NCBI GenBank assembly: GCA_029856045.1
Contig: JAHQWG010000039.1
Span: 1-64,000 of the forward strand
Length of the DNA stretch: 64,000 nt
Origin: Promethearchaeia archaeon
GTDB lineage: Archaea; Asgardarchaeota; Lokiarchaeia; Sigyniarchaeales; SOKP01
Direction: 5' to 3'
Positions 15,767 to 53,775 of the stretch are shown here, one piece after another. The notes beneath the pieces were generated by a model, which was not told the DNA's origin, ran no database searches, and saw nothing but the letters and a program-made list of their open reading frames with translations. A program made the position numbers and the translations under genes. Numbering within the stretch: position 1 is the first letter of the stretch; each line of letters opens with the position of its first letter.

Positions 15767-16147
15767 ATGTTAAATTTGAAAGGAAAACATAAATTTTTTT
15801 TGTTACTTTTGCTATTCCAATTTTTTTTAATGGCAGTGGTTTTTTTTACCGTTAATAGTCTTATTACTTTTGTCAGTGCCCAAGCTGAAGCGAGCTCCTT
15901 TGATTATTATAATGCAGCAACTGCCTCGAGCTTAGCTTTCTCAGCAGCAATTTCCTTAGCAGCTTCTGTTTTAGGGAGTGCAATGGCTTTAAAAACCGTT
16001 GGTACCGCAGCAATTTCAGCTTTAGCTGAGCGAGAAGAAGTTTTTTTTAAATCTTTTTTAATTGTAGCTTTTTGTGAAGCGATAGCAATATACGGCCTAA
16101 TCATTGCAATATTATTGTGGACAAAAATACCTTCACCACCAGCCTGA
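15767..16147 (+). CDS. atpK: A/V-type ATPase proteolipid subunit K (c)
   Basis: Single hairpin with conserved Glu in AFCEAIAIYGLIIAILL; N-terminal signal-like extension. Confidence 0.9.
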   Translation: MLNLKGKHKFFLLLLLFQFFLMAVVFFTVNSLITFVSAQAEASSFDYYNAATASSLAFSAAISLAASVLGSAMALKTVGTAAISALAEREEVFFKSFLIVAFCEAIAIYGLIIAILLWTKIPSPPA

Positions 16148-16198
16148 AAAAATTCATTTTTTATATAAATTTTTAAAAGGTTTTAGAGAGGCGATAAA

Positions 16199-17254
16199 TT
16201 AACGAGCGTTATTGTACCTTCTTATGCTTACTCTTATATTAAAATGAGTCTTTTAAAACAACTAATTATTGATGATAAATCTTTGCAGAAATTAGAAGAA
16301 ATCAGTAATATTGAAGAATTTATTGAATTTATTAGTCCTTATTATCCTAATTTAAGCATCAAAGAATATACAATCGAAAAAATTGAGCAGGCTCTCTACC
16401 ATATTTATTTTAAGTTAGTTGGAAAAATTATGCAATATTCACCCCCAAATATGAGGAGTATTTTAAGAGATTATTTATTGAAATATGAAATAATGAATAT
16501 TAAGCAAATTATTCTAGGTTCAATTTTAGGTATGAGTATTGAAGAGAAAAAAAAAAATGTTAATTATTTAATTGAAGAATATTTAGAAAATGTAGATTTT
16601 ATTGAAGATTTGATTAAAATTTCATCCTTAGATGAGATTCAGTTATTTATGAAGCAAACTAGATATAATAAAGCTGTTAGAGAAGGTATTCTTTACTTTA
16701 AGAAAAATAATGAAATATTTGTCTTAGAAGCTTTCTTAGATCAATTATACTATAAAAATCTAATTAAAAAGAAACATACTTTCAATAAAAAAGAAAATGT
16801 AATGATTAATTTATTTGTGGATTATGTATCCGAGATATACAACTTAAATATAATATATCGGGGAATTAAAAATAAAATTGATAAAAAATTATTAGCCCAA
16901 TTTCTTTTAAATAATTATTTATTTTTAAACGCTTATAATATTAATTATTTATTATATCTTGATGATGTAAATGATTTTATTTCAGTAATTTATAATTATT
17001 TTAAAAAAAATAAGGAAATAAGTCCTTTTTTTAGGATATTCGGTCTTAATGAAAAGCATATTTTATTATCACTCGAAAAATTATTTCAAAAATATTATTT
17101 TAAAAAATTTCAAGTAAAGATTGATGATATTGATTTTTTAACAATATATAAAATCTTAGAATTGGTAATAAAAAAAGAAAATGAAATACGATTTATTATT
17201 ATACCAAAAGTAGTTAAAATCACTCACGAAAAATTTAGAAATTTAAAATCGTAA
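16199..17254 (+). CDS. atpC: A/V-type ATPase subunit C (V0 d-like); start uncertain (TTA 16199 or ATG 16244)
   Basis: Operon position; N-terminal PSYAYSYIK lies upstream of the first ATG; KYEIMNIK, EAFLDQLYY, EIYNLNIIYRG. Confidence 0.8.
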   Translation, partial: LTSVIVPSYAYSYIKMSLLKQLIIDDKSLQKLEEISNIEEFIEFISPYYPNLSIKEYTIEKIEQALYHIYFKLVGKIMQYSPPNMRSILRDYLLKYEIMNIKQIILGSILGMSIEEKKKNVNYLIEEYLENVDFIEDLIKISSLDEIQLFMKQTRYNKAVREGILYFKKNNEIFVLEAFLDQLYYKNLIKKKHTFNKKENVMINLFVDYVSEIYNLNIIYRGIKNKIDKKLLAQFLLNNYLFLNAYNINYLLYLDDVNDFISVIYNYFKKNKEISPFFRIFGLNEKHILLSLEKLFQKYYFKKFQVKIDDIDFLTIYKILELVIKKENEIRFIIIPKVVKITHEKFRNLKS

Positions 17255-17302
17255 ATAATATAATAGATAATTTCAAAAAGTAAAAGAAAAAGCTTTAGAA
17301 CG

Positions 17303-17620
17303 ATGGAGATATTTAAGTGGGTAAAGGATATTGAAAAAGTCCATGAGGATTTAATTGAAAATACTAAAAGAGAAAATTTCGCTGAAATTCAGAATTTAAA
17401 AAATCAACAAGAGAATCTTATAGAAAAAACTTCAATAGAAAATCAAAAATTTGTGAGTTTAGCTTTAAAAACTCTATCTGAAGAGGTTGACAATGAAATT
17501 AAAATAATAGGACAGAATTTAGATGTTGCTATTAAGAATCTTGAAATAAATTATCAAAAGAATCGTAAAAATTTAGAAAAATTAATCATTGAAAAATTGA
17601 GGTTTGATTTTAGTGTCTGA
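17303..17620 (+). CDS. A/V-type ATPase peripheral stalk subunit H (G-like)
   Basis: 105-aa charged coiled-coil protein within the ATPase operon. Confidence 0.55.
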   Translation: MEIFKWVKDIEKVHEDLIENTKRENFAEIQNLKNQQENLIEKTSIENQKFVSLALKTLSEEVDNEIKIIGQNLDVAIKNLEINYQKNRKNLEKLIIEKLRFDFSV

Positions 17621-17936
17621 TAATCAAAAAATTCATGTTATTGGAAATGAAGATATTGTATTAATGTTTAGTCTTTTGGGGATAGAAGGAACTGTTATTA
17701 AAAATAATGATAATTTTCTAGAAATATTTAATCTTTTGAAAAATAAATCAGAAATTGGAATGGTTATTATTGCAATGAATTTATCAACAGAAATTATCGA
17801 TTTTTTGATAGATTTCAAATTGGATAATAGAAAACCGCTCATATATTTACTGCCTGATGTATTTCAAGAAAATTTTGAAAAGAATGATGTATTTCTAAAT
17901 AAAATCTATGATTCTATAGGTGATATTATATTATAA
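17604..17936 (+). CDS. atpF: A/V-type ATPase subunit F
   Basis: KIHVIGNEDIVLMFSLLGI, IGMVII, PLIYLLPD; the start may be GTG 17613. Confidence 0.85.
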   Translation: MILVSDNQKIHVIGNEDIVLMFSLLGIEGTVIKNNDNFLEIFNLLKNKSEIGMVIIAMNLSTEIIDFLIDFKLDNRKPLIYLLPDVFQENFEKNDVFLNKIYDSIGDIIL

Positions 17937-18673
17937 AAAGAAGAGTTAAGAGTTCTGAATTAAAAGAATTAAAAGAAAGATTTGGCAAATTAGGATTATA
18001 TCTAATTGAACAATCTCGAGAAGAGATCAAAAAAATTAATGAAAAATTCTTGTTTCAAAAAGCAGATATTGAAAACAAATATAGAGAAAAAAATGTTGAA
18101 AATTCCCTTAAAATAAGAAATCAATATATCGAAGAGTATAATCAATATTTAAATAATTCATTATCTACGACTCTCTTGAAAATAAAAGAGAGATTTTTGA
18201 ATCTAAAAAATAGACTAGTTAAAGAATTAACGAATGACTTGTATCAATTAATAAAAGATAAGATAAATACAAATTATGATAATTATATAAAATTTTTACT
18301 AGAACTCATTAAAAAGAATACTTATAATTTAGATAAATATCAAGAAATAACTTTTTTTTTTAATTCTAAGGATTATAATTATTTTAGTAAAAATTTAGAT
18401 AAAATCCAAAACTTATTCAATAATTCAGTTGAAATTAAAAAAAATGACACTGAAATTATTGGAGGATTTAAGATTTTATTGATTGAAGGGAGACTAAATT
18501 ATGATTATTCAATTAGTAATTTAATTGATAAAAATTCAACATATATTGAAATGGAGTTTTCTAAAATTGTTTCTGATTCAGAGATTAAAGAAATAGAGCA
18601 TAAATTTGAGGATTTTATACGGAATCAGAAATTACGAATAACGGAGTATTTAAAAGAATATGACCGAATCTAA
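17933..18673 (+). CDS. atpE: A/V-type ATPase subunit E; probable non-canonical start (ATT 17930/ATA 17933), first canonical codon is TTG 18050
   Basis: Coiled-coil N-half; IIGGFKI...NYDYSI C-terminal signature; frame open from 17924. Confidence 0.75.
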   Translation: MKRRVKSSELKELKERFGKLGLYLIEQSREEIKKINEKFLFQKADIENKYREKNVENSLKIRNQYIEEYNQYLNNSLSTTLLKIKERFLNLKNRLVKELTNDLYQLIKDKINTNYDNYIKFLLELIKKNTYNLDKYQEITFFFNSKDYNYFSKNLDKIQNLFNNSVEIKKNDTEIIGGFKILLIEGRLNYDYSISNLIDKNSTYIEMEFSKIVSDSEIKEIEHKFEDFIRNQKLRITEYLKEYDRI

Positions 18674-20486
18674 TTATGGATATATATCTGCAATTAATGG
18701 TTCTTTAATTGAAATAAAAGGATTCGAAAGTCAAATAAGACTTCATGATTTAATTAAAATTTCTGAACAAAATATTTTAGGGGAAGTTATTCAAATATAT
18801 TCTAAATATGTAGTTGCTCAATGTTTCGAAAGTACAATAAATTTAAAATTAAAAGAAGAAGTTATTGACATTCATGAACCTTTATCTATGGAGTTAGGTC
18901 CGGGCTTATTAGCTAACATTTTTGATGGAATTCAAAGACCATTACAACAAGCTTTTAATAAATTCAAAGATGGAGGATTACCAAAAGGTCTAAAATTTTC
19001 ATCCTTATCAAGAACAAAAAAATGGCATTTTGTGCCATTAAAAAAAATAAATGATGTTGTAAATAGCGGAGACATAATTGGAACAGTACAAGAAACTCAC
19101 TTAATAGAACATAGAATAATGGTGCCTCCCAATGTTTCTGGAAAATTGTCTTTTATAGCTGAGGAGGGGAATTATACTATCATTGATGAGATATATAAAT
19201 TGAAAAAAAATGGTAAAGAGAAAAGTTATAGCATGCTTCAAAAATGGTCTATTACCAGAAGCAGACCTTATAAGAAGAGAATAAATCCTAATGAACCATT
19301 GATTACGGGGATACGTGTCATAGATTTATTGTTTCCTGTAGCAAAAGGAGGTTCTGTTGCTATTCCAGGTGGGTTTGGAACGGGCAAAACTGTCATCCAA
19401 CAGTCAATAGCTAAGTGGTGCAATGCTGATATAATTATTTTTGTAGGTTGTGGAGAAAGAGGGAATGAAATTGCCGATGTGTTGAAGCAATTTACTGAAT
19501 TAATAGATCCAAAAAGTGGACGACCTCTTCTAGAACGTATAATACTTTTTGCAAATACTTCAAACATGCCAGTTTCGGCACGAGAAGCCAGTATTTTTTC
19601 AGGAGTTACAATAGCAGAATATTATAGAGATATGGGATATGATGTTGCAGTTTTAGCCGATAGTACTTCTAGGTGGGCAGAATCTTTAAGAGAAATTTCG
19701 GGTTTATTGGAAGAAATGCCCGCAGAGGAGGGTTACCCTGCTTATTTACCGTCAAAGCTTTCCAGTTTTTATGAACGAGCAGGTGTTGTTAAAGCTTTAG
19801 GAAAAGATAATCTAGAAAATGAAATTACTGGTTCTTTAACAATAATTGGATCAGTATCACCTCCAGGTGGAGATTTTAGTGAACCAGTTACAGCAACTAC
19901 CAAACATTTTGTTCAAGCATTTTGGGCATTAGATGCTAGTTTAGCATATTCAAAACATTATCCGGCTATAAATTGGTTAAATTCATATTCTAATTATCCC
20001 GAATATATTTCAAATTGGTGGTACGAGAGAGATATTGATTGGTCAGAAGTGGATATTGATTGGTATGAATGTCGGAAAGAAATAAATGAAATTTTATCAA
20101 AGGAAAATGATTTAAAATATATTACACAATTAATAGGAGAAGAAAATTTACCAGAAGATCAACAGCTTGTTCTATTTATTGCAAAAACAATTCGAAATGG
20201 TTTTTTAATCCAGAATGCATTTGATAATATAGATAATTATACTGATGTAAGAAAATTATTGGGATTTATTAAAATAATTATTTTATTATACAAGGAGAGT
20301 AAAGAACTTTTAGATCAAGGTTTTATAATTGAAGATTGCAGAGCCATTAAAGAAATAAACGATATTTTAAGAATTGGTCAATCTATACCTAATAAAGACT
20401 TTAACCAAATTGAAAAATTGAAAGAGATATTACTAAATAGAATAGAATATATGAAATTAACACGTGGAGTTTCAAGCAAAAAATGA
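18660..20486 (+). CDS. atpA: A/V-type ATPase catalytic subunit A (copy 1, canonical motifs)
   Basis: P-loop [49 protein letters not shown]. Confidence 0.97.
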
Positions 20487-21874
20487 GTATATCATATAAA
20501 AAGATAAAACAAATAGTAGGGCCCCTTTTATTCTTAAAGAACGAACACGATGTTAAATATGGGGAAATAGTTAAAATTCGAACAGATGATAATAAAGAGC
20601 GTACTGGTCAAGTCGTTAAAATGAATGAAAATTTAATTATTATTGAATCTTTTGAAGAAACAACTGGATTATCCTCAGAAAATGCTGAAATTATTTTTAC
20701 TGGCGATTCTTTCAGATTAAAAATATCTAAAGATATGATTGGACGAACATTTAATTCATTGGGAAAACCGATTGATATTAAAACAAAAAAGGAATTGGAA
20801 TCTGGGATTTTAACAGATATTGAACGTGAAATTGATGGAATCCCTATTAATCCTTTTGCTAGAGAGTATCCTTCAGAAGTTATACAGACTGGGATATCTG
20901 TAATAGACGGTTTATTTACATTAATTAGAGGTCAAAAACTTCCCATTTTTAGTGGACAAGGATTGCCACATAATAAGTTAGCAGCTCAAATCGTAACTCA
21001 AGCAAAAGTTTTAACAGGAGAACCATTTTTAATAATTTTTTGTGGGATTGGTATTATTCAAGATGATGCAATTTATTTTTTAAATCGTTTTCAAGAAAGT
21101 GGAAATATCCAAAACATTATCTCATTTATAAATTTTGCTGAAGATCCTATTATGGAAAGACTAATTATTCCAAGAGTTGCATTAACGACAGCAGAATATT
21201 TTGCTTTTGAAAAAGACATGCAAGTTCTTGTCATTTTAATTGATATGACGAATTATGCCGAAGCTTTAAGAGAATTAAGTTCTGCTAAAGAAGAGATACC
21301 GAGTAGAAAAGGCTATCCAGGGTATTTATATTCAGATTTTGCTTCTATTTATGAAAGAACAGGAAAAATAAAGGGTAAGAAGGGTTCAATTACACAAATA
21401 CCAATTTTGACAATGCCAAATGATGACATTACACATCCAATTCCTGATACTTCAGGATACATTACTGAAGGACAATTAGTTCTTAGTCGAAATTTGCATA
21501 AAAAAAATCTGTATCCTCCATTAGATGTACTAGCTTCAATATCACGACTTATGAAAGATGCTATTGGAAAACAAAATACACGTGAAGATCATGCCGATAT
21601 TAGCTCTCAATTATTAGCTTCTTATTCCAGTGCCCTTGAAGTAAGAGACCTTATTTCAATCTTAGGAGAAGAAGGGTTGAGTTTAAATCAAAAAGCCACA
21701 CTAAAATTTGGAGATGATTTTGAGAAAAAATTCTTAAATCAAGGATTAGGGGAAAATCGCAATTTTTCAAAAACATTAACTCTTGCATGGGAGATCTTAT
21801 CAAATTTAGAAAAAAATCAATTATTTAGAATTCATAAAAAATTTATAGATAAATATTATCCAGAATTGGTGTGA
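20483..21874 (+). CDS. atpB: A/V-type ATPase subunit B
   Basis: [40 protein letters not shown], arginine finger SRLM. Confidence 0.97.
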
Positions 21875-21877
21875 ATT

Positions 21878-22513
21878 ATTAGTTTCAGAGAAATAAAACC
21901 TACTAAAACAAATTTAATTAATTTAAAGAAAAAATTAATTTTTGCCATTAAAGGAGAAAATTTTTTAGAATATAAACGAGAACAACTGATTGTACAAATT
22001 AAACAGTTTTGGTCTGAATATAAATTATATAAAAATAAATTTTTAGGTTTGTACAAAAATGCGCTATATAAATTATATCAAACTTATAAAGAAATGGGAG
22101 AAATCCAAGTTAATTTAATAAGCAAAATAAGTAGAATTCAGCACAATCCATTAATTAGTATAAAATATAGAAAAAGTTTTGGAATAATTATTCCTGACAT
22201 AAAATATGAAATAATACAAGAAGGACATCTCCCTGCATATTCATTTGAAAATACAAGTCACAATTGTGATGACTTGATAAATATTTTAAAAGATCTTTTT
22301 GAAGCCATGATCCATTTGGTAGAAAAAGAAGATTTAATGTTAAAGGTTGCTTTGAATTTTAAAAAAATAAATCGTAGGATAAGTGGTTTAAAAAAAAAGA
22401 TAATCCCTGAATTGCAAATAGAGATTAAGAAAATTAATGACATTTTGGAAGAAGTTGAAAGAGAAAATTTTGTTAGATTAAAAAAAACAAAAGATTTGAT
22501 TATTCAAAAATAA
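21878..22513 (+). CDS. atpD: A/V-type ATPase subunit D; probable ATT start (21875/21878), first canonical codon is TTG 22049
   Basis: The conserved N-terminal helix KPTKTNLINLKKKL...GENFLEYKREQL is encoded upstream of the TTG; C-terminal RRISGLKKKIIP...LEEVERENFVRLKK. Confidence 0.85.
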   Translation: MSFREIKPTKTNLINLKKKLIFAIKGENFLEYKREQLIVQIKQFWSEYKLYKNKFLGLYKNALYKLYQTYKEMGEIQVNLISKISRIQHNPLISIKYRKSFGIIIPDIKYEIIQEGHLPAYSFENTSHNCDDLINILKDLFEAMIHLVEKEDLMLKVALNFKKINRRISGLKKKIIPELQIEIKKINDILEEVERENFVRLKKTKDLIIQK

Positions 22514-22537
22514 AAAACTATCTAGAATGTGAGTTAA

Positions 22538-24817
22538 ATGAAGAATAAAAATGAGATGAGTTTAGTAAAAGTTACTATAAATAACAATTATAAAGATAGT
22601 ATCTTAAATCAACTTTCTAAAAAAAATATTATTTATATAAAACCCAAAGAAAAACCTAAAATAAGAGAAAAATCAGAAGAAAACCCACTATTGGAGAAAA
22701 TCATTATATTCAGACAAAATATTGAAACTTTATTTAGAAATCTTAAAATTAATAGATTTGATTTTCTTAATCTGGAATTTGATGAAAACGAAAGAATTCC
22801 ATTTGAAGTAAAGGATTTACACGAGTTAATTAACTTAACTCAAGAAGAGATAAATTTTTACACCAATCGTTTTAATGAATTGGAGAGATATATTGCTAAA
22901 GCAACAATTGAATTGGAAAATTTAAGCACCATAAAAAGTAGCTATGAATTTTTAGATAATTTTAATTTGATGCGAGAGAGTCCAACTTATTTTAAACAAT
23001 TGAAATTTAAAGTTTATACTACTTTCTCAAAAAATATAACTAATTTAAAAGCTCTTTTTGAATTCTCTGAGTTTCCAAATCTATATCAAACATATCAAAT
23101 ATCTGATGATAGAATAGTTTTTTATATTATATATCCAGAAGAAAGAGAAAATGAGTTAATAGAAAGAATTAATATTATCTATGCAGAAGAAATACCAATT
23201 TTAAGAAGATATTTAACTTCTGAAGGAATTAAATTTAGTAGAATCAATAGAGAAATTGATCTAATTAAAAATAATTTATCTAAATACCAGAGGGAATTAG
23301 AGAGGATAAGAGATGAGAACCTTCTAAAATTTGCAGCCATTGATGAAGTAGTTCAAAATTTAGAAAAATATAATTGGGCTGAACGACAATTTGATCAAAT
23401 ATCAACGGATCGTTTAACGTTAAAATTTTTTGTTCTTAAAAATAGAAAAAAAGAAGTAATAGATGAGATTCTAAAAAATTTCAAAGAAAAAACACTAGTT
23501 GATTCAATAAATATATCTAAAAAACATCCTGTTTTAGAAACTGAGAAATTTGAAAACATATTAGAGGAAAAAAAAGCTAAAGGAAAAAAAGAAATTAAAA
23601 AAGAACAATCTGAAATTGAAGCAAAAGATATTGATTTAAGAGCTCAAACTCCAACGATAATGAGAAATGTATTTTTTGTAAGGCCTTTCGAAACCATAAC
23701 AAAAATGTATGGTACTCCTTCTTACTATGAAATTGACCCAACCCCCTTTATTGCGGTGACATTTCCCATTTTATTTGGTTTAATGTTTGGAGATATAGGG
23801 CATGGAATATGTTTAATAATTGCGGGATTAATTGGTGCCATAAAATTTAGAGAAAAAAAAGGGAGTGATTTTTATAATTTATGTTGGATTATTTTCTATT
23901 GCGGCTGGGGCTCTATTTTAGGTGGGGCATTATATGGAGAATTTTTTGGAATGCATGATGTAGAAATATTTGGATATATATTTTTACATTTGGAGCCTAT
24001 TACAATTCCAATTCTTAACATTACCCTTTATAATCCCTTGGATAATATTATGATTACCTTTAAATTTGCAGTATTACTTGGAGTTTTTCATATTAATTTG
24101 GGCTGGTTTATACAAGCATTAAATTATTGGAAGCAAGACCGCAAATATCTTGCCTTTTCAGATTCTTTCATTAAAATATCATTATTGACTGGAGGTACAA
24201 TTTTAATTTTTGTATTTGGATTTAATATTAATATATGGTTTGAATACCCATATCCGATTTTATTGCCATTGGTTCCGGGGTTATTATTAATATTCTTAAA
24301 ACCTCTTGGAAAAGTATTTCGTGTATCTTTTTTAAAAGAAGAATCCTATGGAGGATTAATTGGTGAAGGTTCAATTGAAACATTTGAAACTTTAATATCT
24401 GTTATAAGTAATGCTGCTTCTTATATAAGATTATTAGCCTTAGCATTGGCGCATATCTCTTTAATGCTTGCTATTAAAGCGATGGTTGATTTAATTGAAG
24501 GAGAAGGATTTTTAATTATAAGCATCCAATTAGTTGGATTAATCTTTGGAAATTTAGTAGTTATTTTACTCGAAGGGTTACTTGTTTTTTTAAACGCTAT
24601 GCGGCTTCATTTTTACGAATTCTTTTTTAAATTCTTTCAGGGATCGGGAACTGAATTTATTCCTTTCCATTTAACCAGTGAATATTCAATTATTAATTTT
24701 AAAATGGATATTGAAAGAGATGTAATTACTGTAGATATAGAAAGAGAGATTGAAACAAAGAAAACTTTAGAAAAAATAAATAAGGCTAAAAAGTATATCT
24801 CAAAAAAATATTTATAG
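22538..24817 (+). CDS. atpI: A/V-type ATPase subunit I (a)
   Basis: PFE...MYGTPSYYEIDPT, FGLMFGDIGHG, essential Arg in SYIRLLALALAH, RLHFYEFFFKFF. Confidence 0.95.
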   Translation: MKNKNEMSLVKVTINNNYKDSILNQLSKKNIIYIKPKEKPKIREKSEENPLLEKIIIFRQNIETLFRNLKINRFDFLNLEFDENERIPFEVKDLHELINLTQEEINFYTNRFNELERYIAKATIELENLSTIKSSYEFLDNFNLMRESPTYFKQLKFKVYTTFSKNITNLKALFEFSEFPNLYQTYQISDDRIVFYIIYPEERENELIERINIIYAEEIPILRRYLTSEGIKFSRINREIDLIKNNLSKYQRELERIRDENLLKFAAIDEVVQNLEKYNWAERQFDQISTDRLTLKFFVLKNRKKEVIDEILKNFKEKTLVDSINISKKHPVLETEKFENILEEKKAKGKKEIKKEQSEIEAKDIDLRAQTPTIMRNVFFVRPFETITKMYGTPSYYEIDPTPFIAVTFPILFGLMFGDIGHGICLIIAGLIGAIKFREKKGSDFYNLCWIIFYCGWGSILGGALYGEFFGMHDVEIFGYIFLHLEPITIPILNITLYNPLDNIMITFKFAVLLGVFHINLGWFIQALNYWKQDRKYLAFSDSFIKISLLTGGTILIFVFGFNINIWFEYPYPILLPLVPGLLLIFLKPLGKVFRVSFLKEESYGGLIGEGSIETFETLISVISNAASYIRLLALALAHISLMLAIKAMVDLIEGEGFLIISIQLVGLIFGNLVVILLEGLLVFLNAMRLHFYEFFFKFFQGSGTEFIPFHLTSEYSIINFKMDIERDVITVDIEREIETKKTLEKINKAKKYISKKYL

Positions 24818-24843: not shown

Positions 24844-25290
24844 ATGATTGATCAAGATATAGAAAAAAAAAAATCTAAAAAGGGTATTATACTAAGACTA
24901 TTTTTTTTAATTGTTAATTTATTAATAGTGTTTTTCTTGTATAATCTCTTAAATGAATTTGGTGTAAATCCCTTTATAATTGCCTTAATACTTATTTTTG
25001 TATTTTTAGTATTTGCTGGACCTTTATTAAGTGGAAAAAGTAAATCTCTTTATTCAAGAATGTTTCCTGATAAAAAAAAGAAGGCAAGAGAAAAATTTCT
25101 AAGAAAACGAGAAGAATATGAAAAAAAAGATGAGATGAGACAATTTAAATTAAAACACATTAATCAAATTGATTTGGATTTTGAATACCGCAAGCCAATT
25201 ATTCATAAATGTGAGAAATGTGGTATGATAATTACGAAATTTGCAAAAAAATGCCCTATCTGTGGTAAAAAGATAGATTATTATGAATGA
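24844..25290 (+). CDS. two-TM membrane protein with C-terminal zinc ribbon
   Basis: Two hydrophobic helices, basic linker, CEKCG...CPICG. Confidence 0.7.
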   Translation: MIDQDIEKKKSKKGIILRLFFLIVNLLIVFFLYNLLNEFGVNPFIIALILIFVFLVFAGPLLSGKSKSLYSRMFPDKKKKAREKFLRKREEYEKKDEMRQFKLKHINQIDLDFEYRKPIIHKCEKCGMIITKFAKKCPICGKKIDYYE

Positions 25291-25322: not shown

Positions 25323-27116
25323 ATGACTAAATCTGAATATGGATACATTTCCGCAATTAATGGAACATTAATCGAAATAAAAGGATTAGAGGATAAAATA
25401 CGACTTCATGATTTAATTAAAGTTTCTGAGCATAATATTTTAGGTGAAGTCATTCAAAAATTTTCTGACCATGTAGTTGCTCAATGTTTCGAAAGTACCA
25501 TAAATTTAAAATTAAAGGAAGAAGTTATCGACATTAATGAGCCTTTATCTATGGAGTTAGCTCCTGGTTTATTAACAAAAGTTTTTGATGGAATTCAAAG
25601 ACCATTACAAAAAACTTTTAACAAATTCAAAGATGGAGGATTAAAGAGAGGTCTTAAATTTCCATCCTTATCAAGAACAAAAAAATGGCATTTTGTACCG
25701 ATAAAAAAATTAAATGACGATGTAATTAGCGGAGATATAATTGGTACAGTACAAGAAACTCATTTAATAGAACATAGAATAATGGTGCCCCCTAATATCT
25801 CTGGAAAATTGTCTTTTATAGCTGAGGAGGGTGAATATACGATCATTGATGAGATATATAAATTGGAAAAAGATAGTAAAGAAAAAACTTATAATATGCT
25901 TCAAAAATGGCCTATTACAAGGAAGAGACCTTATAAAGAGAGAATAGATCCCTATGAACCACTGATTACAGGGATGCGTGTAATTGATTTATTATTTCCT
26001 GTGGCAAAAGGAGGTTCTGTTGCTATTCCAGGTGGATTTGGAACCGGTAAAACTATAATTCAACAATCGATAGCCAAATGGTGCAATGCTGATATAATTA
26101 TTTATATTGGTTGTGGAGAGCCAGGGAATGAAATTGCTGATATTTTAAAACAGTTTACTGAATTAATGGATCCAAAAAGCGGACAACAATTATTTGAACA
26201 TATCATTCTTATTGCAAATACTTCAAATATGCCTGTTTCAGCACGAGAAGCCAGTCTTTTTTCAGGAGTTACAATAGCAGAATATTATAGAGATATGGGA
26301 TATGATGTTGCAGTTTTAGCCGATAGTACTTCAAGATGGGCAGAATCCTTAAGAGAAATTTCTGGTTTATTAGAAGAAATGCCTGCAGAGGAGGGTTATC
26401 CTGCTTATTTACCATCAAAACTTTCCAGCTTTTATGAACGAGCAGGTGTTGTAAAAGTTTTAGGAGATAACTATTTAGGTAATGAAATAACTGGTTCTTT
26501 AACAATAATTGGAACTATATCCCCTCCAGGTGGAGATTTTAGTGAACCAGTCACCGCAACTACTAAACGTGTTGTTCAAACGTTTTGGGCATTAGATGCT
26601 AAATTAGCTTACTTAAAGCACTACCCTGCTATAAATTGGTTAAATTCATATTCAAATTATCCGGAATATATCAAAAATTGGTGGAATCAGAATGATATTA
26701 ATTGGTCAGAAATAGATATTGAATGGTATGAATGTCGAAAACAAGTAAATGAGATTTTATCTAAGGAAAATGATTTAAAATATATTACTCAATTATTAGG
26801 AGTAAAGAATTTACCTGAAGATCAACAACTAGATCTATTTATTGCAAAAATAATTAAAAATGGTTTTCTTAACCAAAGTGCATTTGATAAGATTGATAAT
26901 TTTACTGATTTTAAAAAATTAATGGCATATATTAAGATTATTCTTTTATTATATAAAGAGGGAAAAGATCTTATAGAACAAGGTTTTATAATTGAAGAAA
27001 AAATTGATGAAGAGATCGTAAATGATATTTTAAGAATTGGTCATTCTATTTCTAATGAAGATATCTACCAAATTGAAAAATTAAAAAATAAATTACTTGA
27101 AATTACAAAACCTTAA
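25323..27116 (+). CDS. atpA: A/V-type ATPase subunit A paralog (copy 2) with GER->GEP substitution
   Basis: Colinear with and highly similar to 18660-20486; GGFGTGKT intact but GCGEPGNE. Confidence 0.92.
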
Positions 27117-27331: not shown

Positions 27332-29182
27332 ATGGAATATTTTGGATTTACTGGAAAACTTTTGAAGATAAATTTAACGGATAAATCAATATCTGAAGAA
27401 AAATTAAATCATAATTTTTCCCAAGAGTTTTTAGGTGGTGCTGGATATGCTTGTCGGTATTTATTTGAGTTAATTGATAAAGAAATAGATCCTTTATCTC
27501 CTCAAAATAAAATAATGATTATGACTGGACCGTTAAGTGGAACAGCAGCTCCCTCTTCCGGAAGGTTTGTAATCTGTTCAAAATCACCTTATACTAATTT
27601 ATGGAGTGAATCTAATTGTGGTGGGTTTTTTGGACCTGAATTAAAAAAGACTGGTTATGATGGGATAGTCATCACTGGAAAATCAGAACATCCGGTTTAT
27701 ATAAAAATATTTAAAGATAATGCCGAAATTTGTGATGCTTCACATATTTGGAGTAAAGGAATAATTGAATCTAATAAAATACTCAAAAAGGTATTTGATA
27801 ACTCAAAAGCAAGAGTTCTATGTATTGGGCAGGCAGGAGAAAATTTAGTTAAATATGCTATAGTAGCCGCTGAAGGTAGAGCAGCGGGACGAACAGGGTT
27901 GGGGGCGGTTTTTGGTTCTAAAAAATTAAAAGGGATAGCTGTTATGGGAAACAATTTAAAACCAAAAATAGCAAGACCTTCTGAATTTAAAGAAACTGTT
28001 AAAAAAATCAGTAAGTATATAACGAATTCTAATTTTACTAAAGCTTTTAGAGAATATGGCACAAGCATAGGAATAAGATCCGCTCATTCATTAGGAGATT
28101 TACCAATAAAATATTTCTCTAAGGGTGAATGGAGTGAAATAGATAAGATTTCAGGACAAAAACTTAAACAAGAATATTTAGTAAAAAATAGATCGTGTTG
28201 GAATTGCGTAGTAGGATGTGGAAGAATAGTAGCTATCAATAATAAAGATCACTCTCTGCCGGAACATGAGGGACCTGAATATGAAACGATTGCAGGATTT
28301 GGCTCAATGATTTTAAATGATAATTTACCTTCAATAATAAAAGCAAATTATATGTGTAATGATTATGGAATTGATACAATAAGTTCTAGTGGGACTATTG
28401 CATTACTTTATTACTTGTATAATCAAAAAAAGATTAAAAAAGAAGATATTGATAATTTAGATTTACAATGGGGTAATTCGGATTCTCTATTAAAACTAAT
28501 TGAAAAAATAGCATTTAGAGAGGGAATTGGAGATGTTCTTGCTGATGGTTCTAACGCTGTAGGAGAAAGATTTAATATATCTAGAGATGAAATAGCGACT
28601 GTGAATAATTTGGAAGTTCCATATCATGATATGCGGAATTGTTATGGAATGTCATTAACCTACGGATTTAGCCCAAGAGGTCCCTGCCATATGACAGGAG
28701 ATATCTATAAAATTGGAAAAAAAGGAAATGAAATAGATTTTTCATCGGTTGGTGTTAATAAAATTGATATGCACCAAAACAATAAAAAAATGGCTGAAGC
28801 ATGTGCAAGATTACAAGATTATCGCGCTTTCTATTCTAGTTTAATAATATGTAATTTTATAAATCCACCTCCTTCCTATTTCGTAGAATTATTAAATAGC
28901 TTGTTCGGAATTGACCTTGATTTAGAAAAAATTCAACTAATCGGTGAAAGAATCTTTACAATTAAAAGGCTTTTCAATATTAAAATGGGTTTAAATTCAA
29001 GAAATGATTATATTCCTAAAATTTTACGCACACCAGTTAAGGAAGGAGCTTCAATGGGTAAAGCGCCAGATTTTGATAAATTGAAAAATTATTATTATGA
29101 GGTTCGCAATTGGGATCCTCAAACAGGAATACCAAATAGTGAAAAAATAAAGGAATTGGGATTATTAGATTTAAGGATTTAA
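27332..29182 (+). CDS. aor: tungsten-containing aldehyde:ferredoxin oxidoreductase family protein
   Basis: KSP.T, GYDGIVI.G, IGQAGENLV, RAAGRTGLGAVFGSKKLK, CxxCxxxC, GPEYET, CNDYGIDTIS. Confidence 0.9.
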   Translation: MEYFGFTGKLLKINLTDKSISEEKLNHNFSQEFLGGAGYACRYLFELIDKEIDPLSPQNKIMIMTGPLSGTAAPSSGRFVICSKSPYTNLWSESNCGGFFGPELKKTGYDGIVITGKSEHPVYIKIFKDNAEICDASHIWSKGIIESNKILKKVFDNSKARVLCIGQAGENLVKYAIVAAEGRAAGRTGLGAVFGSKKLKGIAVMGNNLKPKIARPSEFKETVKKISKYITNSNFTKAFREYGTSIGIRSAHSLGDLPIKYFSKGEWSEIDKISGQKLKQEYLVKNRSCWNCVVGCGRIVAINNKDHSLPEHEGPEYETIAGFGSMILNDNLPSIIKANYMCNDYGIDTISSSGTIALLYYLYNQKKIKKEDIDNLDLQWGNSDSLLKLIEKIAFREGIGDVLADGSNAVGERFNISRDEIATVNNLEVPYHDMRNCYGMSLTYGFSPRGPCHMTGDIYKIGKKGNEIDFSSVGVNKIDMHQNNKKMAEACARLQDYRAFYSSLIICNFINPPPSYFVELLNSLFGIDLDLEKIQLIGERIFTIKRLFNIKMGLNSRNDYIPKILRTPVKEGASMGKAPDFDKLKNYYYEVRNWDPQTGIPNSEKIKELGLLDLRI

Positions 29183-39096: not shown

Positions 39097-40953
39097 ATGA
39101 CACAATTATTTGGATATAATGGAAAAATTGCATATATAGACTTAAGCAATCAGAAGGTTGATATTAAAGATCTTGATCCTCAAATTGCAGAAAAGTATAT
39201 TGGTGGAGTGGGTTTATCAGTAAAACTGACTTATGATCTCCTTACGGATAAAGATTATGAAATATTAAAATCAGATCCGTTTGCTGGTATTAACCCACTG
39301 ATTTTTGCAACTGGACCTCTAACAGGAACTGCTACACCTTCTAGCAGCAGATATTCAGTAACGGGGATATCTCCTTTAACGGGAATTTGGGGCGAAGCAA
39401 CGTCGGGGGGATTTTTCCCAATAGCGCTAAAAAGATGTGGTTTTGATGCAATTATTATAACTGGTAATGCTGATAAGCCTTTATATTTGTTTATAAATGA
39501 TGGTATCATTGAATTTAAAGACGCAAAAAATGTATGGGGCAAAAATACAAGGGAAACAATAGAATTAATTAAAAAAGAAATTAATGATGATAAGATTCGT
39601 CTTGCATGTATCGGAAAAGCTGGTGAAAACTTGGTAAAATATGCAGCGGTAATAAATGATGAGGGAAGGGCAGCGGGAAGATGTGGTCTCGGAGCTTTAA
39701 TGGGAAAAAAGAAATTAAAAGCGCTCATTGTTAAAGGAAAAAAAACCATAGAATATTATAGTAAAGATGAATTAATATCTAAAGGCAAAGCCTCATTAAG
39801 AAATATACATAATTCTTTTGCAGTTAATTTCTTTAGTCATTATGGCACATTAATATATTCTGATATGGGAATGGTTCTTGGGGATATTCCGGCAAATTAT
39901 TTCACAAATACGGAATTTGTTGCTGAAAACTTAACAGGACGGGCACTAAAAGAACAATACCCCGTTTTGAAATATGCATGTGCGGGATGTACAATAGGTT
40001 GTGGAAGAATAACAATTACAGAAGTAAACGGTGAAGAAATCGAAGTTCATGGACCAGAATATGAAACAATGGCAGCTTTTGGTCCAATGTGCGGAATCTT
40101 AGATTTTAATCCGATAATTAGGGCAAATCACATTTGCAATCTTGAAGGAGTAGATGTAATATCTGGTGGTGTTTCGATATCATTTTTAATTTATCTTGTT
40201 GAAAATAAAATCGCTTTGGATGAAATTAAAAAAAAATTATCGGATATTAACTTGGAGGAAATAAAATGGGGTAATGACAAAGTTGTACTAAAGTTATTAG
40301 ATAAAATTATTAAAAGGGAAGGAATTGGAGATGTTTTAGCAGATGGTGTCCGTATTATGGCGAAAAAATTGGGAGTAGATCCTGGTTTAGCTGCTCATGT
40401 TAAGGGTTTAGAAATTCCAATGCACGACCCTAGAGCATATGCAGGTCAAGCTCTTACATATTTGACATGTTGCACAGGAGCTAATCACAATAAAGGTGAT
40501 TTCTATAATATCGATGGAGATGCCGCATCATACCCTAAAATGAGAAAAGGTGATCGATTTGATATTAATGGTAGAGAAGCATCAGTTATGGCATATCAAG
40601 ATTTAACCAATATATATGATTCCAGTGTAATTTGTAATTTCACTCATGTAAATATTTCCACTATGTGTCAATTATTAAAAGCAACAACTGGCTTTGAATC
40701 CCTTGGGAAAAAGAAATTATTCATGAAAGCAGGGGAAAGAGGTTCAAATATAAAAAGATTGATTTCATGCAAATTAGGAATAACAAAAAAAGATGATGCC
40801 CTACCAGAAATTGTCACCAGAGTATTAGAGAGTGGTGGTACAGCTGGATTTAAATTGAATTTATCAGAAAATTTGAAAGAATTTTATAAAATAAGGGATT
40901 GGGATGATAATGGTGTCCCAACGAATGAAAAATTAGATGAATTGGAAATCTAA
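39097..40953 (+). CDS. aor: tungsten-containing aldehyde:ferredoxin oxidoreductase family protein
   Basis: SPLTG, IGKAGENLV, RAAGRCGLGA, CAGCTIGC, GPEYET, VKGLEIPMHDPR. Confidence 0.9.
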   Translation: MTQLFGYNGKIAYIDLSNQKVDIKDLDPQIAEKYIGGVGLSVKLTYDLLTDKDYEILKSDPFAGINPLIFATGPLTGTATPSSSRYSVTGISPLTGIWGEATSGGFFPIALKRCGFDAIIITGNADKPLYLFINDGIIEFKDAKNVWGKNTRETIELIKKEINDDKIRLACIGKAGENLVKYAAVINDEGRAAGRCGLGALMGKKKLKALIVKGKKTIEYYSKDELISKGKASLRNIHNSFAVNFFSHYGTLIYSDMGMVLGDIPANYFTNTEFVAENLTGRALKEQYPVLKYACAGCTIGCGRITITEVNGEEIEVHGPEYETMAAFGPMCGILDFNPIIRANHICNLEGVDVISGGVSISFLIYLVENKIALDEIKKKLSDINLEEIKWGNDKVVLKLLDKIIKREGIGDVLADGVRIMAKKLGVDPGLAAHVKGLEIPMHDPRAYAGQALTYLTCCTGANHNKGDFYNIDGDAASYPKMRKGDRFDINGREASVMAYQDLTNIYDSSVICNFTHVNISTMCQLLKATTGFESLGKKKLFMKAGERGSNIKRLISCKLGITKKDDALPEIVTRVLESGGTAGFKLNLSENLKEFYKIRDWDDNGVPTNEKLDELEI

Positions 40954-48424: not shown

Positions 48425-49291
48425 TTGAAAGAAAAAGTGAAAAATTATAATAAGTTATCTTTAATTATTCTCTGTGCAGGAGAAGGAAAAAGAATTCAAA
48501 AATTCTTTCCAAAAATTCCCAAATCTTTAATAAAAATAAAAAAACTCGATAAATCAATAGTAGAATATACTATAACGCAATTTTTAAATCTAAATTTTAA
48601 TAAAATTTATCTTATCTATGGATATAAAGCGAATATTTTTATTAACTATATTAAAGATTTGGAATCAAAAAATAAAATTGAAAACTTTCACTTAAATAAT
48701 TCAATTTTTCCTGTAAATGCGGAAAAGAATTACAAAAAAGGACCATTTCATTCATTTTTGGAGATTTTAAACGAACCTAATTTTATTTTCGATGATAATT
48801 TCTTCTTATTAATTCCAGGAGATACACTATTTGAAAATGAATTACTTAATACAATACTTGGATGCATTAAAGAAAAAATAAGGGAGAATGCTAATATGCC
48901 AATTATTTTTTATCGTGAATTTGATAAAAATTTAATAGAAATATATAAATTGAAAAAATGTTATTCTATTTCTGCTGTAAATATTTTAAAGCAAAAGAAT
49001 CATGAATTCTTAAAATCTATAGAAAAGATTGATATTAAATCCAAGAAATTAGAGGAACCTATTTTTCAAATGATTCCAGTTTATTTCTTCCCTTCTAAAT
49101 TTTTAAAAGAAATAAGAGATTCGATTGATATTAATCTAGGTGACTACTCAAATTTAAGGGAATTCATCAATAGCCTTTATTTAAAAGAAAAAAAAATTCT
49201 TACCTGCAAAATAAATAAATCTTTAAATTTTTTTGAAGTAGATACAATAGAAGATTTACAGTTTTTAGAAGCACATTATAAAGTAAAATGA
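48425..49291 (+). CDS. nucleotidyltransferase family protein (NTP_transferase)
   Basis: IILCAGEGKR...PKSLI, PGD, FEVDT.EDL. Confidence 0.75.
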   Translation: MKEKVKNYNKLSLIILCAGEGKRIQKFFPKIPKSLIKIKKLDKSIVEYTITQFLNLNFNKIYLIYGYKANIFINYIKDLESKNKIENFHLNNSIFPVNAEKNYKKGPFHSFLEILNEPNFIFDDNFFLLIPGDTLFENELLNTILGCIKEKIRENANMPIIFYREFDKNLIEIYKLKKCYSISAVNILKQKNHEFLKSIEKIDIKSKKLEEPIFQMIPVYFFPSKFLKEIRDSIDINLGDYSNLREFINSLYLKEKKILTCKINKSLNFFEVDTIEDLQFLEAHYKVK

Positions 49292-49301
49292 TTTGAAGAT
49301 T

Positions 49302-49311
49302 AAAAAAAAAA
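49302..49311 (-). terminator. oligo(T)10 terminator immediately 3' of the candidate ncRNA (minus strand)
   Basis: A10 on plus = U10 directly after the closing helix (...UAUCCCCC-U10). Confidence 0.55.
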
Positions 49312-49314
49312 GGG

Positions 49315-49946
49315 GGATAATAGTAGTTTTGCATTAGCAAACTTCAGAATCATTTGAATCCTCTTTTTTTTGATAAATTTTTAATTGAAATAGCGGAAAT
49401 TTTGGAAGATTCTAATTCATTTATCATTCTGGGATCTTGGGATATATCAAGATTATATATCTGAGATTTTTTTTCAAGTAGAACTTGTATTTTATAATTT
49501 CAGAGAAGTCAGTATTATGATTCTCTGTGTCAGAGTTTGGCAAACATTGCATATTATAATAATTGAAAACTAATTTTCACCGAATTTAACCATTATACAG
49601 TGAATCGAGAGCTTATACGATTAATATCTCAATATTTGATTCTTTGTAGCCGATTTTTATTTTAAAGAGAGGTTTTTTGATGGCTTTAGGTTTATTTGAA
49701 CGGAAACTAATTTTCTAATTACTTATCTTACTACCCATGAATCAATTAATTATATCAGAGAAGAACTTATTTGGTTCTCTGTATTATAGTTTGTTTAAGA
49801 AAGACTTTTTATTGATAGAACTTATGATTTAATTGAATAAAAGCCTAGTTTTTGAATTAATTTTTAACGAATTTAATGCAATAACTTTCTAAGGTTCCAG
49901 AAATTTTGTTAGAATATCAAACCAATGCAAACGGATACTATTATCC
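49315..49946 (-). ncRNA. candidate large (~630 nt) structured non-coding RNA of unrecognised family
   Basis: No ORF of 60 aa or more; 5' GGAUAAUAGUA pairs with 3' UACUAUUAUCC, followed by UUUGCAUUGGU/GCUAAUGCAAA with G.U pairs; many internal hairpins; upstream TATA box and downstream U-tract. Confidence 0.6.
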
Positions 49947-49969
49947 AAAATGATATAAGAAAATTCACA

Positions 49970-49977
49970 TTTATAAA
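49970..49977 (-). promoter_or_regulatory. TATA box (TTTATAAA) for the candidate ncRNA
   Basis: Lies 24-31 nt upstream of the 5' G (49946) of the closing helix, which is typical archaeal spacing. Confidence 0.5.
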
Positions 49978-50021
49978 TATTTAGAAAATATTTTAATAAG
50001 GTCTTATTATATTAAATCCAT

Positions 50022-50423
50022 ATGAGTGATAATTCTGATAAAATAACAATTAACATAAATATTATTGACTGTGGAACAATTAAAGCAACTTTTTATAGAC
50101 ATTTAAGTCCTTTTTCAGTTACGGAAATTTTAGAAAAATTACCACTTATTATTAGGGGGAGATTTAATTTTATAGGTTCGAAGACTCATTGGATGCTTCC
50201 TCAAATAGGTATATCAGTGGGTCCTGACTCCAAGGCAACGCTAACGGTTGAGAAAGGAGACATTGTTTATTGCCCCCAGACTGACAGTATTTATATCTTT
50301 GTAGAGAATGATAATCTTACAACAAAGATGAATAAAATGGGGAAAATTAATAATATAGAGGATTTAAATTTATTTTCTAATGCAAAGAATGGAACTAATA
50401 CCGAATTAAAATTAAGTAATTAA
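50022..50423 (+). CDS. cyclophilin-like fold protein (TM1367-like)
   Basis: SP..V..ILEKLP, VEKGDIVYCPQTDSIYIF, NKMG. Confidence 0.65.
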   Translation: MSDNSDKITININIIDCGTIKATFYRHLSPFSVTEILEKLPLIIRGRFNFIGSKTHWMLPQIGISVGPDSKATLTVEKGDIVYCPQTDSIYIFVENDNLTTKMNKMGKINNIEDLNLFSNAKNGTNTELKLSN

Positions 50424-50431
50424 ATGTTGAT

Positions 50432-51238
50432 TTATTCTTCTTTCTTTTGCCGATCTTCCAAATATCGAGTCCAATCGAAACCAAATATAAACATCATAAT
50501 TGTTATTGTAAGAATAAGCATAATACCTTCAATTATCACATCTTGAATTGGAGTTAATTCTGCACCAATCCCTAAAAGTCCTAGTCTCACCAATACTGGC
50601 CAAGTGCAATAGAACAAAGTCGTAAAAGTCTTCCCAATCCATCCAGGCAATAATGCCTTGTACCATTTATAATGAAGCAAACCAAGCGGAATATATAATA
50701 AATCATCTGGGGCAGGAGTAAGGGCAAATAGGAAAATGTATAGGGGAGTTCGTTTATCATTTTCTAAAACCAATTTTCCAAACCCACTTAAATTCTTCAT
50801 ACTTTTGGAACTTGAAACATCTATTAATTTCCCAGCCCCATATCCAGCGATATAGCCAGCTAACTCTCCAATAACACAACCTAATCCCCCAAATACAACA
50901 AAACCCATAATTTCCATCCAAAAATTACTATTAGCTAATATTTCTTCAAATAATAATCCCTGATTTCCGTATTTCATTAATAATGAATTTGATAATGTAA
51001 ATAAAATGAATGGAAAAGGAATTGGGAAGCCAATGCTTGCTGATCCAATCAAACAAACTAAAAAAGCAATAAATAAACCCCAGAAATAATTAGTATCTTC
51101 TGTTAGGACCACAAAAGAAGAGCGCACTGATATTACAAAGTCTTGGAATTCAGGAAAAACAAAAAAACACAAAAGATAAGCCAAAACTATCACATAAAAA
51201 AATATAAAAACATTTAATAATCGCTTGGATAGGGTCAT
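50432..51238 (-). CDS. DedA/VTT (SNARE-associated) family membrane protein
   Basis: FPIPFP, GELAGYIAG, FLFALTPAPDDL.YIPLG, GWIGK. Confidence 0.8.
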   Translation of the reverse strand: MTLSKRLLNVFIFFYVIVLAYLLCFFVFPEFQDFVISVRSSFVVLTEDTNYFWGLFIAFLVCLIGSASIGFPIPFPFILFTLSNSLLMKYGNQGLLFEEILANSNFWMEIMGFVVFGGLGCVIGELAGYIAGYGAGKLIDVSSSKSMKNLSGFGKLVLENDKRTPLYIFLFALTPAPDDLLYIPLGLLHYKWYKALLPGWIGKTFTTLFYCTWPVLVRLGLLGIGAELTPIQDVIIEGIMLILTITIMMFIFGFDWTRYLEDRQKKEE

Positions 51239-51382
51239 GATAAATTAAAATTAATTTGGGTTATTAATCTTATTTAGTAATGATTCAAGCTCTAATTCTC
51301 AAACACAATACTGATTAAAAAATTTCTAATGGAATAAAGGTAATAAATAGCAGAAAAAAGATTTCTTCTTAGAATCAATGAA

Positions 51383-51769
51383 TCATTTTGTAGATAATTC
51401 GATTTCAATTCTAGATATAATATCTTTATTGTTTTTGTTGTTTTTGTTGTTTTTATTGTTTTTGTTGTAATTTTCGCCTCTCATTCGAGAATCCCGGTTT
51501 TTCCCATAATTCCCATAATTCCCATAATTCCCATAATTACCATAATTACCATAATTATTATTACGAGAACTTATAGATATATTGCTAATATCGATTCCTG
51601 GATACATTCTTCTTTTTAGATCAACAGCGGTTTCGACAGCAGTTGCAATCTCGTCTCCTTCTCCTTTAATTAAAATAGTTCTTGTCCCGGAAGTGAATGC
51701 AAATATACCATCTGTCGTGTATTTGCCTTTGTCCCGTCGATTTCTTACGGTGATAACCTTGGGATTCAT
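51383..51769 (-). CDS. divergent Alba-family nucleic-acid-binding protein with low-complexity insertion
   Basis: ILIKGEG..IATAVETAV.L..R..P.I.I.NI.I and C-terminal ISRIEIEL match the Alba topology. Confidence 0.7.
   Translation of the reverse strand: MNPKVITVRNRRDKGKYTTDGIFAFTSGTRTILIKGEGDEIATAVETAVDLKRRMYPGIDISNISISSRNNNYGNYGNYGNYGNYGNYGKNRDSRMRGENYNKNNKNNKNNKNNKDIISRIEIELSTK
51425..51466. repeat. 9-bp coding repeat, (NNK)4+
   Basis: ttt[a/g]ttgtt units. Confidence 0.85.
51503..51556. repeat. 9-bp coding repeat, (NYG)6
   Basis: [c/a]ccataatt x6. Confidence 0.9.
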
Positions 51770-51906
51770 ATTTTAAAAAAAGATATTTAGAACTTAATAA
51801 TTAAAATTTGACTATACTAAATAAAAACCTTGTTATATTTAAATTATTTTTAGATTGTCAAAGCACAAGTAATTTGAAAATGAAGTATGATTTTTTTAAA
51901 GATGAG

Positions 51907-53058: not shown

Positions 53059-53196
53059 AATTTAGAATATCAAATTTTATAAGAGCAGACAATTCATGAA
53101 TTTTTTATATAGTATAATAAATCAAAAAAAATTATTAAAAACCTTCTTTATTAAATAACTTATTATTAATAAAAACGATAATTTCTCTCTTCAATC

Positions 53197-53775
53197 ATGA
53201 CGCAACCAATTATGAAGAATAAAATTGTTATTGGTTTTGTTGGATTAGCCGGAGCCGGTAAATCATCAGCTCTTGAAGGGATAAAATCCATAGGAACAAT
53301 AATTACAATGGGAGATGTAATAAGAAAAGAGGCAGAACTGAGAGATATACCTCGTACTTCTGAAAATCTTGGAATGATTGCAAAAGAATTGAGAAAAAAA
53401 TATGGGAATAATATTATCGCAAAAAAAAGTGTTGAGCTCATAAAAGAAAACCCATCTAATATAATTGTGGTAGATGGATTACGCTCAATGAACGAAGTGA
53501 ATATTTTTCGCGAGTTTTGGAAATTCCCAATAATATCTATTATTATCGATGAAGAGATTAGGATTAAACGCCTATTAGAAAGGAGAAGAGAAGATGATTC
53601 AATAAAAATAGAGGATATTAAAGAACGAGATGAGAGAGAAATTGAATTTGGCTTGAAAGAAGTTATAGAGAATTCAGATTATAAAATTAATAACAATTCA
53701 ACAATTACAGATTTACAAGAAAAAACACGAAAAATTATTTTTTCAATAATTAAGAAATCATCTAATTTATTCTAA
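53197..53775 (+). CDS. P-loop kinase, archaeal UPF0200 / dephospho-CoA kinase-like
   Basis: GLAGAGKS, MGDVIR, VDGLRS..E, RDEREIEFGL. Confidence 0.8.
   Translation: MTQPIMKNKIVIGFVGLAGAGKSSALEGIKSIGTIITMGDVIRKEAELRDIPRTSENLGMIAKELRKKYGNNIIAKKSVELIKENPSNIIVVDGLRSMNEVNIFREFWKFPIISIIIDEEIRIKRLLERRREDDSIKIEDIKERDEREIEFGLKEVIENSDYKINNNSTITDLQEKTRKIIFSIIKKSSNLF

Follow-up and report, generated by a model that had tools for sequence, protein, structure and literature searches.

The ATPase operon and its second subunit A gene

The window, the whole 64,000-nucleotide stretch of DNA that was analyzed, carries a complete rotary ATPase operon of the A/V type in the order K-C-H-F-E-A-B-D-I (15767-24817). 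The operon continues with the membrane protein gene X and ends with a second gene for subunit A, which we call A' (Table 1). The genome, from a family that we take to be Loki-3/SOKP01 of the Lokiarchaeia, is in 55 contigs and is 100% complete. Subunit A is encoded twice in it, and B, D, I, K, C, E, F and H are each encoded once. We take the gene following D to be subunit I from its sequence character and operon position, and C, H/G, F and E are presumptive assignments from operon order and sequence character.

Table 1. Coordinates of the ATPase genes and of the features of A' in the window
Feature	Position	Strand	Basis or remark
Subunit K (c): single hairpin, carrier Glu, N-terminal hydrophobic extension	15767..16147	+	
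Subunits C (16244-17254), H/G (17303-17620), F (17604-17936), E (to 18673)	16244..18673	+	
Canonical catalytic subunit A, 608 aa, Arg267 at 19458-19460	18660..20486	+	
Subunit B, sole copy in genome; arginine-finger motif intact	20483..21874	+	
Subunit D (rotor shaft), probable ATT start	21878..22513	+	
Subunit I (stator a), presumed	22538..24817	+	ORF
X, membrane protein with two helices, ending in a zinc ribbon	24844..25290	+	
A', second subunit A paralog	25323..27116	+	PRK04192 745 bits (cut-off 470); TM 0.91-0.93 to solved A subunits
A' P-loop Gly237-Thr244, intact	26031..26054	+	
A' catalytic Glu266	26118..26120	+	kept in 65/65 A' copies
Pro267 (CCA) replacing arm arginine	26121..26123	+	alignment of A' copies; E. 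hirae A-Arg262, E. coli beta-Arg182 position
A' Leu312	26256..26258	+	Leu in every A', Ile in every A
76-nt tract identical to 19594-19669 of A	26257..26332	+	possible recent gene-conversion tract, suggestive only
A' Val417	26571..26573	+	V/L/I in all A'; Phe in A
A' Leu431, adjoining adenine pocket	26613..26615	+	Leu in 63/65 A', never in A
A' Lys495, DELSEED-like rotor-contact loop	26805..26807	+	Glu throughout A (67/67); Lys or Arg in 49/65 A'

The A' frame (597 aa) is unbroken, without a stop or frameshift, and its product aligns with A without internal gaps at 81% identity (485/597). A reads GCGERGNE (AGA) where A' reads GCGEPGNE (CCA). A sequence-only reading of the window had reported this replacement, together with an intact P-loop, catalytic Glu, Walker B motif and 597-aa frame, and both codons and all of these elements are confirmed. 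The structure model of A' (pLDDT 87, pTM 0.90) has the four-part architecture of crown barrel, non-homologous region, nucleotide domain and helical C-terminal domain, and it superimposes on the solved A subunits of P. horikoshii (1VDZ/3M4Y), T. thermophilus (6QUM) and E. hirae (3VR4) with the scores given in Table 1. In the model, Pro267 lies just ahead of the arm helix. Because the alignment behind the model is rich in Arg copies, the fold indicates that Pro is tolerated and does not indicate function. A' is not a subunit B: its Walker A motif is intact and it scores 117 bits against PRK04196 (cut-off 349). Public databases name it 'V-type ATP synthase subunit A'. Since the arm arginine is absent, we file it as an A-derived paralog rather than as a catalytic A.

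The two A genes differ in their setting within the operon. The end of E overlaps the start of A, and A is probably translationally coupled to E. Between X and A' lies a short gap (32 nt in this genome). Reading ~60 upstream regions by eye, we found no conserved promoter or ribosome site belonging to A', and a sigma-70 scan for an A' promoter, with a model ill suited to archaea, stayed at chance level. A position after X with no conserved signal would fit an output of A' that is lower than, or separate from, that of A.

X accompanies the ATPase operon across the order and has moved to the operon front in one genome (G030). Its only family match is a weak one to rubrerythrin, and it is a candidate for an extra ATPase subunit in its own right. 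We considered X as a dedicated partner of A' and ruled this out, because operons that lack A', and those of the sister family, have X as well. Another feature of the operon is the start of D. At its apparent start, in the junction with B (21866-21880), D has no ATG, GTG or TTG; it probably begins at an ATT that a GGTG element within the last codons of B precedes by ~7 nt. Among ~38 relatives, the start codon column holds ATT, ATA or ATC, with ATG in five and TTG in two members of the sister family. Such a weak start could keep the output of the rotor shaft, present as one copy, lower than that of the 3:3 head subunits, and E may also start at ATT or ATA. Downstream of A' by 215 nt, on the same strand, lies a gene (27332-29182) related to one at 39097-40953. 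The two encode proteins of 616-618 aa that resemble tungsten aldehyde:ferredoxin oxidoreductases, and this neighborhood is not kept outside the genus.

Distribution, loss and constraint of A'

A' is real and conserved. Within the Lokiarchaeia family the Pro motif occurs in 80 of the 135 genomes and in 7 of the 13 genera, and none of 265 Asgard genomes outside the family has it; a reversed-pattern control gave 0 in the family. The family was also searched by protein and with the codon left open, so that the trait does not define the group, and the codon-open search returned Arg or Pro codons only among the matches listed. One operon-end copy (in G236) was missed by the pattern; it keeps the Pro and has the next Asn changed. 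Outside the Asgard archaea, exact-pattern searches, which would miss other spellings, gave four bacterial matches to the Pro motif (185,579 species genomes) and one metagenome match to a Thr variant. These lie in non-ATPase contexts, and we attribute them to chance.

The usual site of A' is the operon end, after I and X. In two genomes (G012 and G022) A' stands alone elsewhere and is more diverged. It has been lost cleanly in many near-complete genomes, several of which have X followed by the same flanking gene, and its presence changes at least 7 times on a tree of B and I. A' is thus dispensable. The sequence-only reading had missed this repeated loss. In every operon assembled whole, A' lies beside the Arg copy and never replaces it. 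Five genomes show A' only, and in the two that were examined (G003 and G214) the contig ends before the A gene. Each operon has one B, as does this genome.

Both copies are under purifying constraint. In a codon model of the 54 genomes with both copies (kappa fixed at 1), omega is 0.071 for A and 0.095 for A', and pairwise dN/dS counts agree (medians of 0.11 and 0.13). By part, omega for A and A' is 0.087 and 0.103 in the crown, 0.119 and 0.129 in the non-homologous region, 0.036 and 0.055 in the nucleotide domain, and 0.077 and 0.126 in the C-terminal domain. All four parts of A' are thus constrained, with values near those of A. Judged from these substitution rates, A' is slightly relaxed yet clearly in use.

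The sequence-only reading had allowed that the substitution might be unique to this genome, with dN/dS near 1, as expected of a decaying duplicate. Identity between A and A' is 81% here and 55-71% in other genera, which resembles the outcome of a recent copy. However, the Pro motif is found in 80 genomes, the 65 full-length A' copies are all open frames (597-643 aa), their Pro is written with four codons (CCT 33, CCA 23, CCC 5, CCG 4), omega is below 0.1, and the A' subtrees mirror the A subtrees. A pseudogene would show dN/dS near 1, stops and a narrow range; omega is 0.095, with 65 open frames in 7 genera. The distribution and the dN/dS therefore refute a decaying duplicate, a sequencing error or an assembly echo, to which we give practically no weight, and the earlier judgment that the change is unlikely to be a sequencing error holds.

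Several relatives have other unusual ATPase genes. In a genome that is 97% complete (G008), the sole A found (L045:8121-9977) has its catalytic Glu changed to Ile and an altered P-loop, and the operon lacks X; this is possibly a non-working ATPase head. G238 has a second, distant ATPase operon, A-B-D-C-K-I (L225:7726-9528), in which A is 46% identical and keeps the Arg, and G259 has a third A match. Canonical A genes of ~1150 aa in G192 (L232), G177 (L240), G021 and G034 are probably intein-bearing. Subunit I of G002 (L031:7748-10036) is split into frames of 633 and 123 aa, perhaps by an assembly error.

Residues that set A' apart from A

The replaced residue lies in the catalytic site. Position 267, the established equivalent of E. 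coli beta-Arg182, has Arg in the aligned P. horikoshii A. Because A-Lys243 aligns with E. hirae Lys238, position 267 corresponds to Arg262 of E. hirae A, an arm residue that holds the gamma-phosphate in V1 (PMC5095293). This residue is Pro in all 65 A' genome copies and in 34 further proteins; it is Arg in 67/67 A, in 8/8 outgroup sequences and in 61 further canonical copies.

The rest of the nucleotide site has been kept. Lys243/Thr244, Glu266, Asp334 and Arg338 are the same in A and A' of this genome. Across the 65 A' copies, the Walker A motif GxxxxGKT/S is always present, the P-loop Gly and K243, E266, E270, R308, D334, R338 and R373 are invariant, and the adenine pocket retains its aromatics (Y/F434 and F/Y521, each 65/65). 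The kept pocket supports the nucleotide binding that the sequence-only reading proposed for A'. Basic residues have been gained only at 427, 473 and 495, and none that could compensate for the arginine has appeared in the phosphate-binding motifs of the 65 copies.

The arm Pro is one of a linked set of changes. R267P and I312L are absolute, F417 has become V, L or I, S431 has become Leu, E495 has become K/R or another residue, and D273N marks A' in most clades. Among 95 database proteins outside the genome set, Arg goes with Ile312 in 61/61 and Pro goes with Leu312 and Leu431 in 34/34. The sequence-only reading missed this accompanying set at 312, 417, 431 and 495.

In the lineage of this genome (G000 and G002), A and A' differ at 29% of four-fold sites, whereas four-fold differences from any other genus are 46-60% (saturation is near 62%), and with the class columns removed the A and A' of these genomes group together (support of 99). 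The two copies have thus been homogenized after they split, and they nonetheless retain the class residues at 262, 267, 312, 399, 417, 431 and 495. The 76-nt identical tract in Table 1 begins one base past the base that makes I312L; as evidence of recent gene conversion, it is no more than suggestive. Selection would have had to purge any conversion tract that wiped out class residues, or else all of the class changes would have arisen twice. Both alternatives imply strong selection for two different proteins. With the class columns removed, A' monophyly has a p-AU of 0.06, and we name no donor lineage.

Changes on the rotor side bear on where A' acts. Position 495, which in our alignment matches the first Asp of the F1 DELSEED loop, lies in a rotor-contact loop whose mean charge goes from -3.5 in A to -1.6 in A'. 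The C-terminal tail of A' is ~8 residues shorter, and of the positions fixed in A, A' keeps 9/15 in the crown and 19/33 in the C-terminal domain, the rest being relaxed. The short tail, the C-terminal domain as the most relaxed part, the dispensability of A' with 7 changes on the B and I tree, and the diverged stand-alone copies in two genomes would all suit a protein that acts off the ring, as an assembly placeholder, a sink for spare B or a soluble nucleotide sensor. We consider this unlikely, as constraint nearly equal to that on A extends over all four domains, the stator-facing non-homologous region among them, and the rotor-contact loop shows a directed change from acid to base in most clades rather than decay. 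Conservation of this kind suggests that A' probably enters the ring. Given a single B gene and nearly normal constraint on all four domains, A' would most simply be placed at an A position of the same ring.

Residue 103 of subunit F (17910-17912) may be connected with the change in this loop. It is acidic in 44/53 genomes with A' and in 2/25 without (mostly Lys there), a charge complementary to Lys495 of A' as opposed to Glu495 of A. The residue was singled out post hoc among all operon columns, and 3-4 of 6 independent pairs agree and none oppose (p ~0.25). We treat the link as a lead only.

A proposed brake on ATP hydrolysis and its relation to known systems

Loss of the equivalent arginine has been characterized in E. 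coli F1. Wild-type enzyme has 42 units of activity, beta-R182Q has 0.020 and R182K has 0.25, that is, ATPase is ~2000-fold and ~170-fold down; synthesis and Pi binding are abolished and MgADP binding is spared (PMC3268026). By analogy, A' should bind nucleotide and barely turn over, as the sequence-only reading had proposed in calling it catalytically impaired. We think it likely that A' has lost activity and kept ADP binding. We know of no test of Arg-to-Pro at the arm position in a rotary ATPase.

We postulate that A' is a nucleotide-binding, phosphate-blind subunit in some A3B3 heads that brakes ATP hydrolysis, and we give this reading about an even chance; the same role had been suggested by the sequence-only reading, which is partly supported. 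A' would fold as subunit A and bind Mg-nucleotide, and without the arm arginine it would be unable to hold phosphate or to stabilize the transition state. As the product of an uncoupled gene at the operon end, it would fill one of the three A positions in some heads, sharing the single B with A. Its site would bind ADP or ATP without turnover, so that ATP-driven rotation stalls or crawls, and rotation that the proton gradient imposes could still get past it. The ratio of A' to A would then set the share of the enzyme pool that burns ATP. A small amount of A' would matter, because with random mixing 20% A' leaves 51% of heads pure. Locking by Mg-ADP without phosphate is a known brake of F- and A-ATPases (bioRxiv 10.64898/2026.10.01.756066).

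Some observations sit less well with a brake. The catalytic Glu is as invariant as in A, and a purely dead subunit need not keep it. A' is relaxed at some crown and C-terminal positions, and it is cleanly lost in many genomes. In addition, F1 without the P-loop Lys, the catalytic Glu or the Arg finger still rotates, 1000-10000 times slower (PMC5380711), so that 'dead' may mean 'slow'. A' might then be an active isoform, slow or one-directional, that forms A'3B3 heads under some conditions. This would account for the invariance of all other catalytic residues including Glu266, for an omega close to that of A, and for a Pro that is specifically fixed even where the neighboring Asn has changed (G236), and it accords with the robustness of F1 catalysis to loss of a single charged residue (PMC5380711). 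We find it doubtful, since even Arg-to-Lys cuts E. coli F1 ~170-fold and abolishes synthesis (PMC3268026), no compensating basic residue has been gained, and A' never replaces the Arg copy in operons assembled whole.

A NuoH-type pump is found in only 4/135 family genomes. The ATPase may therefore often work as a pump that consumes ATP, which would favor a brake; an H+-PPase is found in 110/135. We examined both as metabolic correlates of A', and neither tracks it. Rnf was not found in this genome. On contig C9 of G000, a cluster of NuoA/H/K/L/M-like genes (48585-54017) is cut by the contig end.

The same anatomy could serve synthesis instead. With one or two idle A' sites, a turn would yield 2 or 1 ATP rather than 3, H+/ATP would rise, and synthesis could proceed at a lower proton-motive force; if the phosphorylation potential is taken as 50 kJ/mol and the ring as c12, the threshold would fall from 130 to 86 or 43 mV. 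The changed rotor-contact loop is compatible with this, the H+-PPase could supply the gradient, and the arrangement would repeat in miniature the half-site loss proposed for the origin of alpha/B, for which Cross and Taiz provide a precedent (as cited in bioRxiv 10.64898/2026.10.01.756066). However, unless energy could be stored in the rotor from one step to the next, every working 120-degree step would remain uphill; a NuoH-type pump is absent from most of the family, and the kept nucleotide pocket suits ADP trapping better than idling. We regard this low gear as quite unlikely. Equally a long shot is the bolder form, in which Loki-3 archaea would swap idle A' into the ring to leave three, two or one working sites, both blocking ATP waste and lowering the required proton-motive force as a gearbox does. 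If it were true, A' would re-enact in living cells the step proposed to have produced the non-catalytic alpha/B.

To our knowledge, every rotary ATPase described has three identical copies of its catalytic subunit, and nucleotides or small accessory proteins act as the brake. A conserved, optional, phosphate-blind catalytic paralog would be a new control principle. Asgard archaea are relatives of the host that gave eukaryotes their V-ATPase. A' is apparently undescribed so far: we found no description of a Pro-type A' paralog in a literature search that covered few subscription papers, and broad ATP synthase phylogenomic papers do not mention it under the terms used. A' also offers a natural test object for how a ring behaves with one idle site and for whether loss of a site raises H+/ATP.

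A' resembles known components in part. With subunit A of A/V-type enzymes (NtpA/AtpA) it shares domain order, fold, P-loop, catalytic Glu, Walker B motif and adenine pocket, and it differs by the arm Pro, by the changes at 312, 417, 431 and 495, and by being a second copy beside one B. Like B and F1-alpha, which are ancient duplicates, A' descends from a duplicated catalytic subunit and was retained although a catalytic residue was lost. However, the Walker A motif is gone from B (PMC10656485), which is an obligatory subunit in 3:3 alternation, whereas A' is optional, keeps Walker A and the Glu, and by its surfaces would be expected at an A position. The E. coli beta-R182Q and R182K mutants have the same residue removed, although they are engineered, F-type and not Pro; we found no natural counterpart of them in the literature searched. 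Hybrid F1 in which one catalytic subunit is crippled has proved possible to make (PMC10266426), and a head containing A' would behave like such a hybrid ring. Lastly, the known brakes on hydrolysis (Mg-ADP inhibition, epsilon, zeta, IF1, AtpTheta, the gamma disulfide and V1 detachment; bioRxiv 10.64898/2026.10.01.756066) have the purpose that we propose for A', namely to stop the waste of ATP at low energy. A' is a full-fold subunit of 597 aa and not a small inhibitor such as epsilon, zeta, IF1 or AtpTheta. None of the known brakes is a full-length catalytic paralog within the ring, as A' would be.
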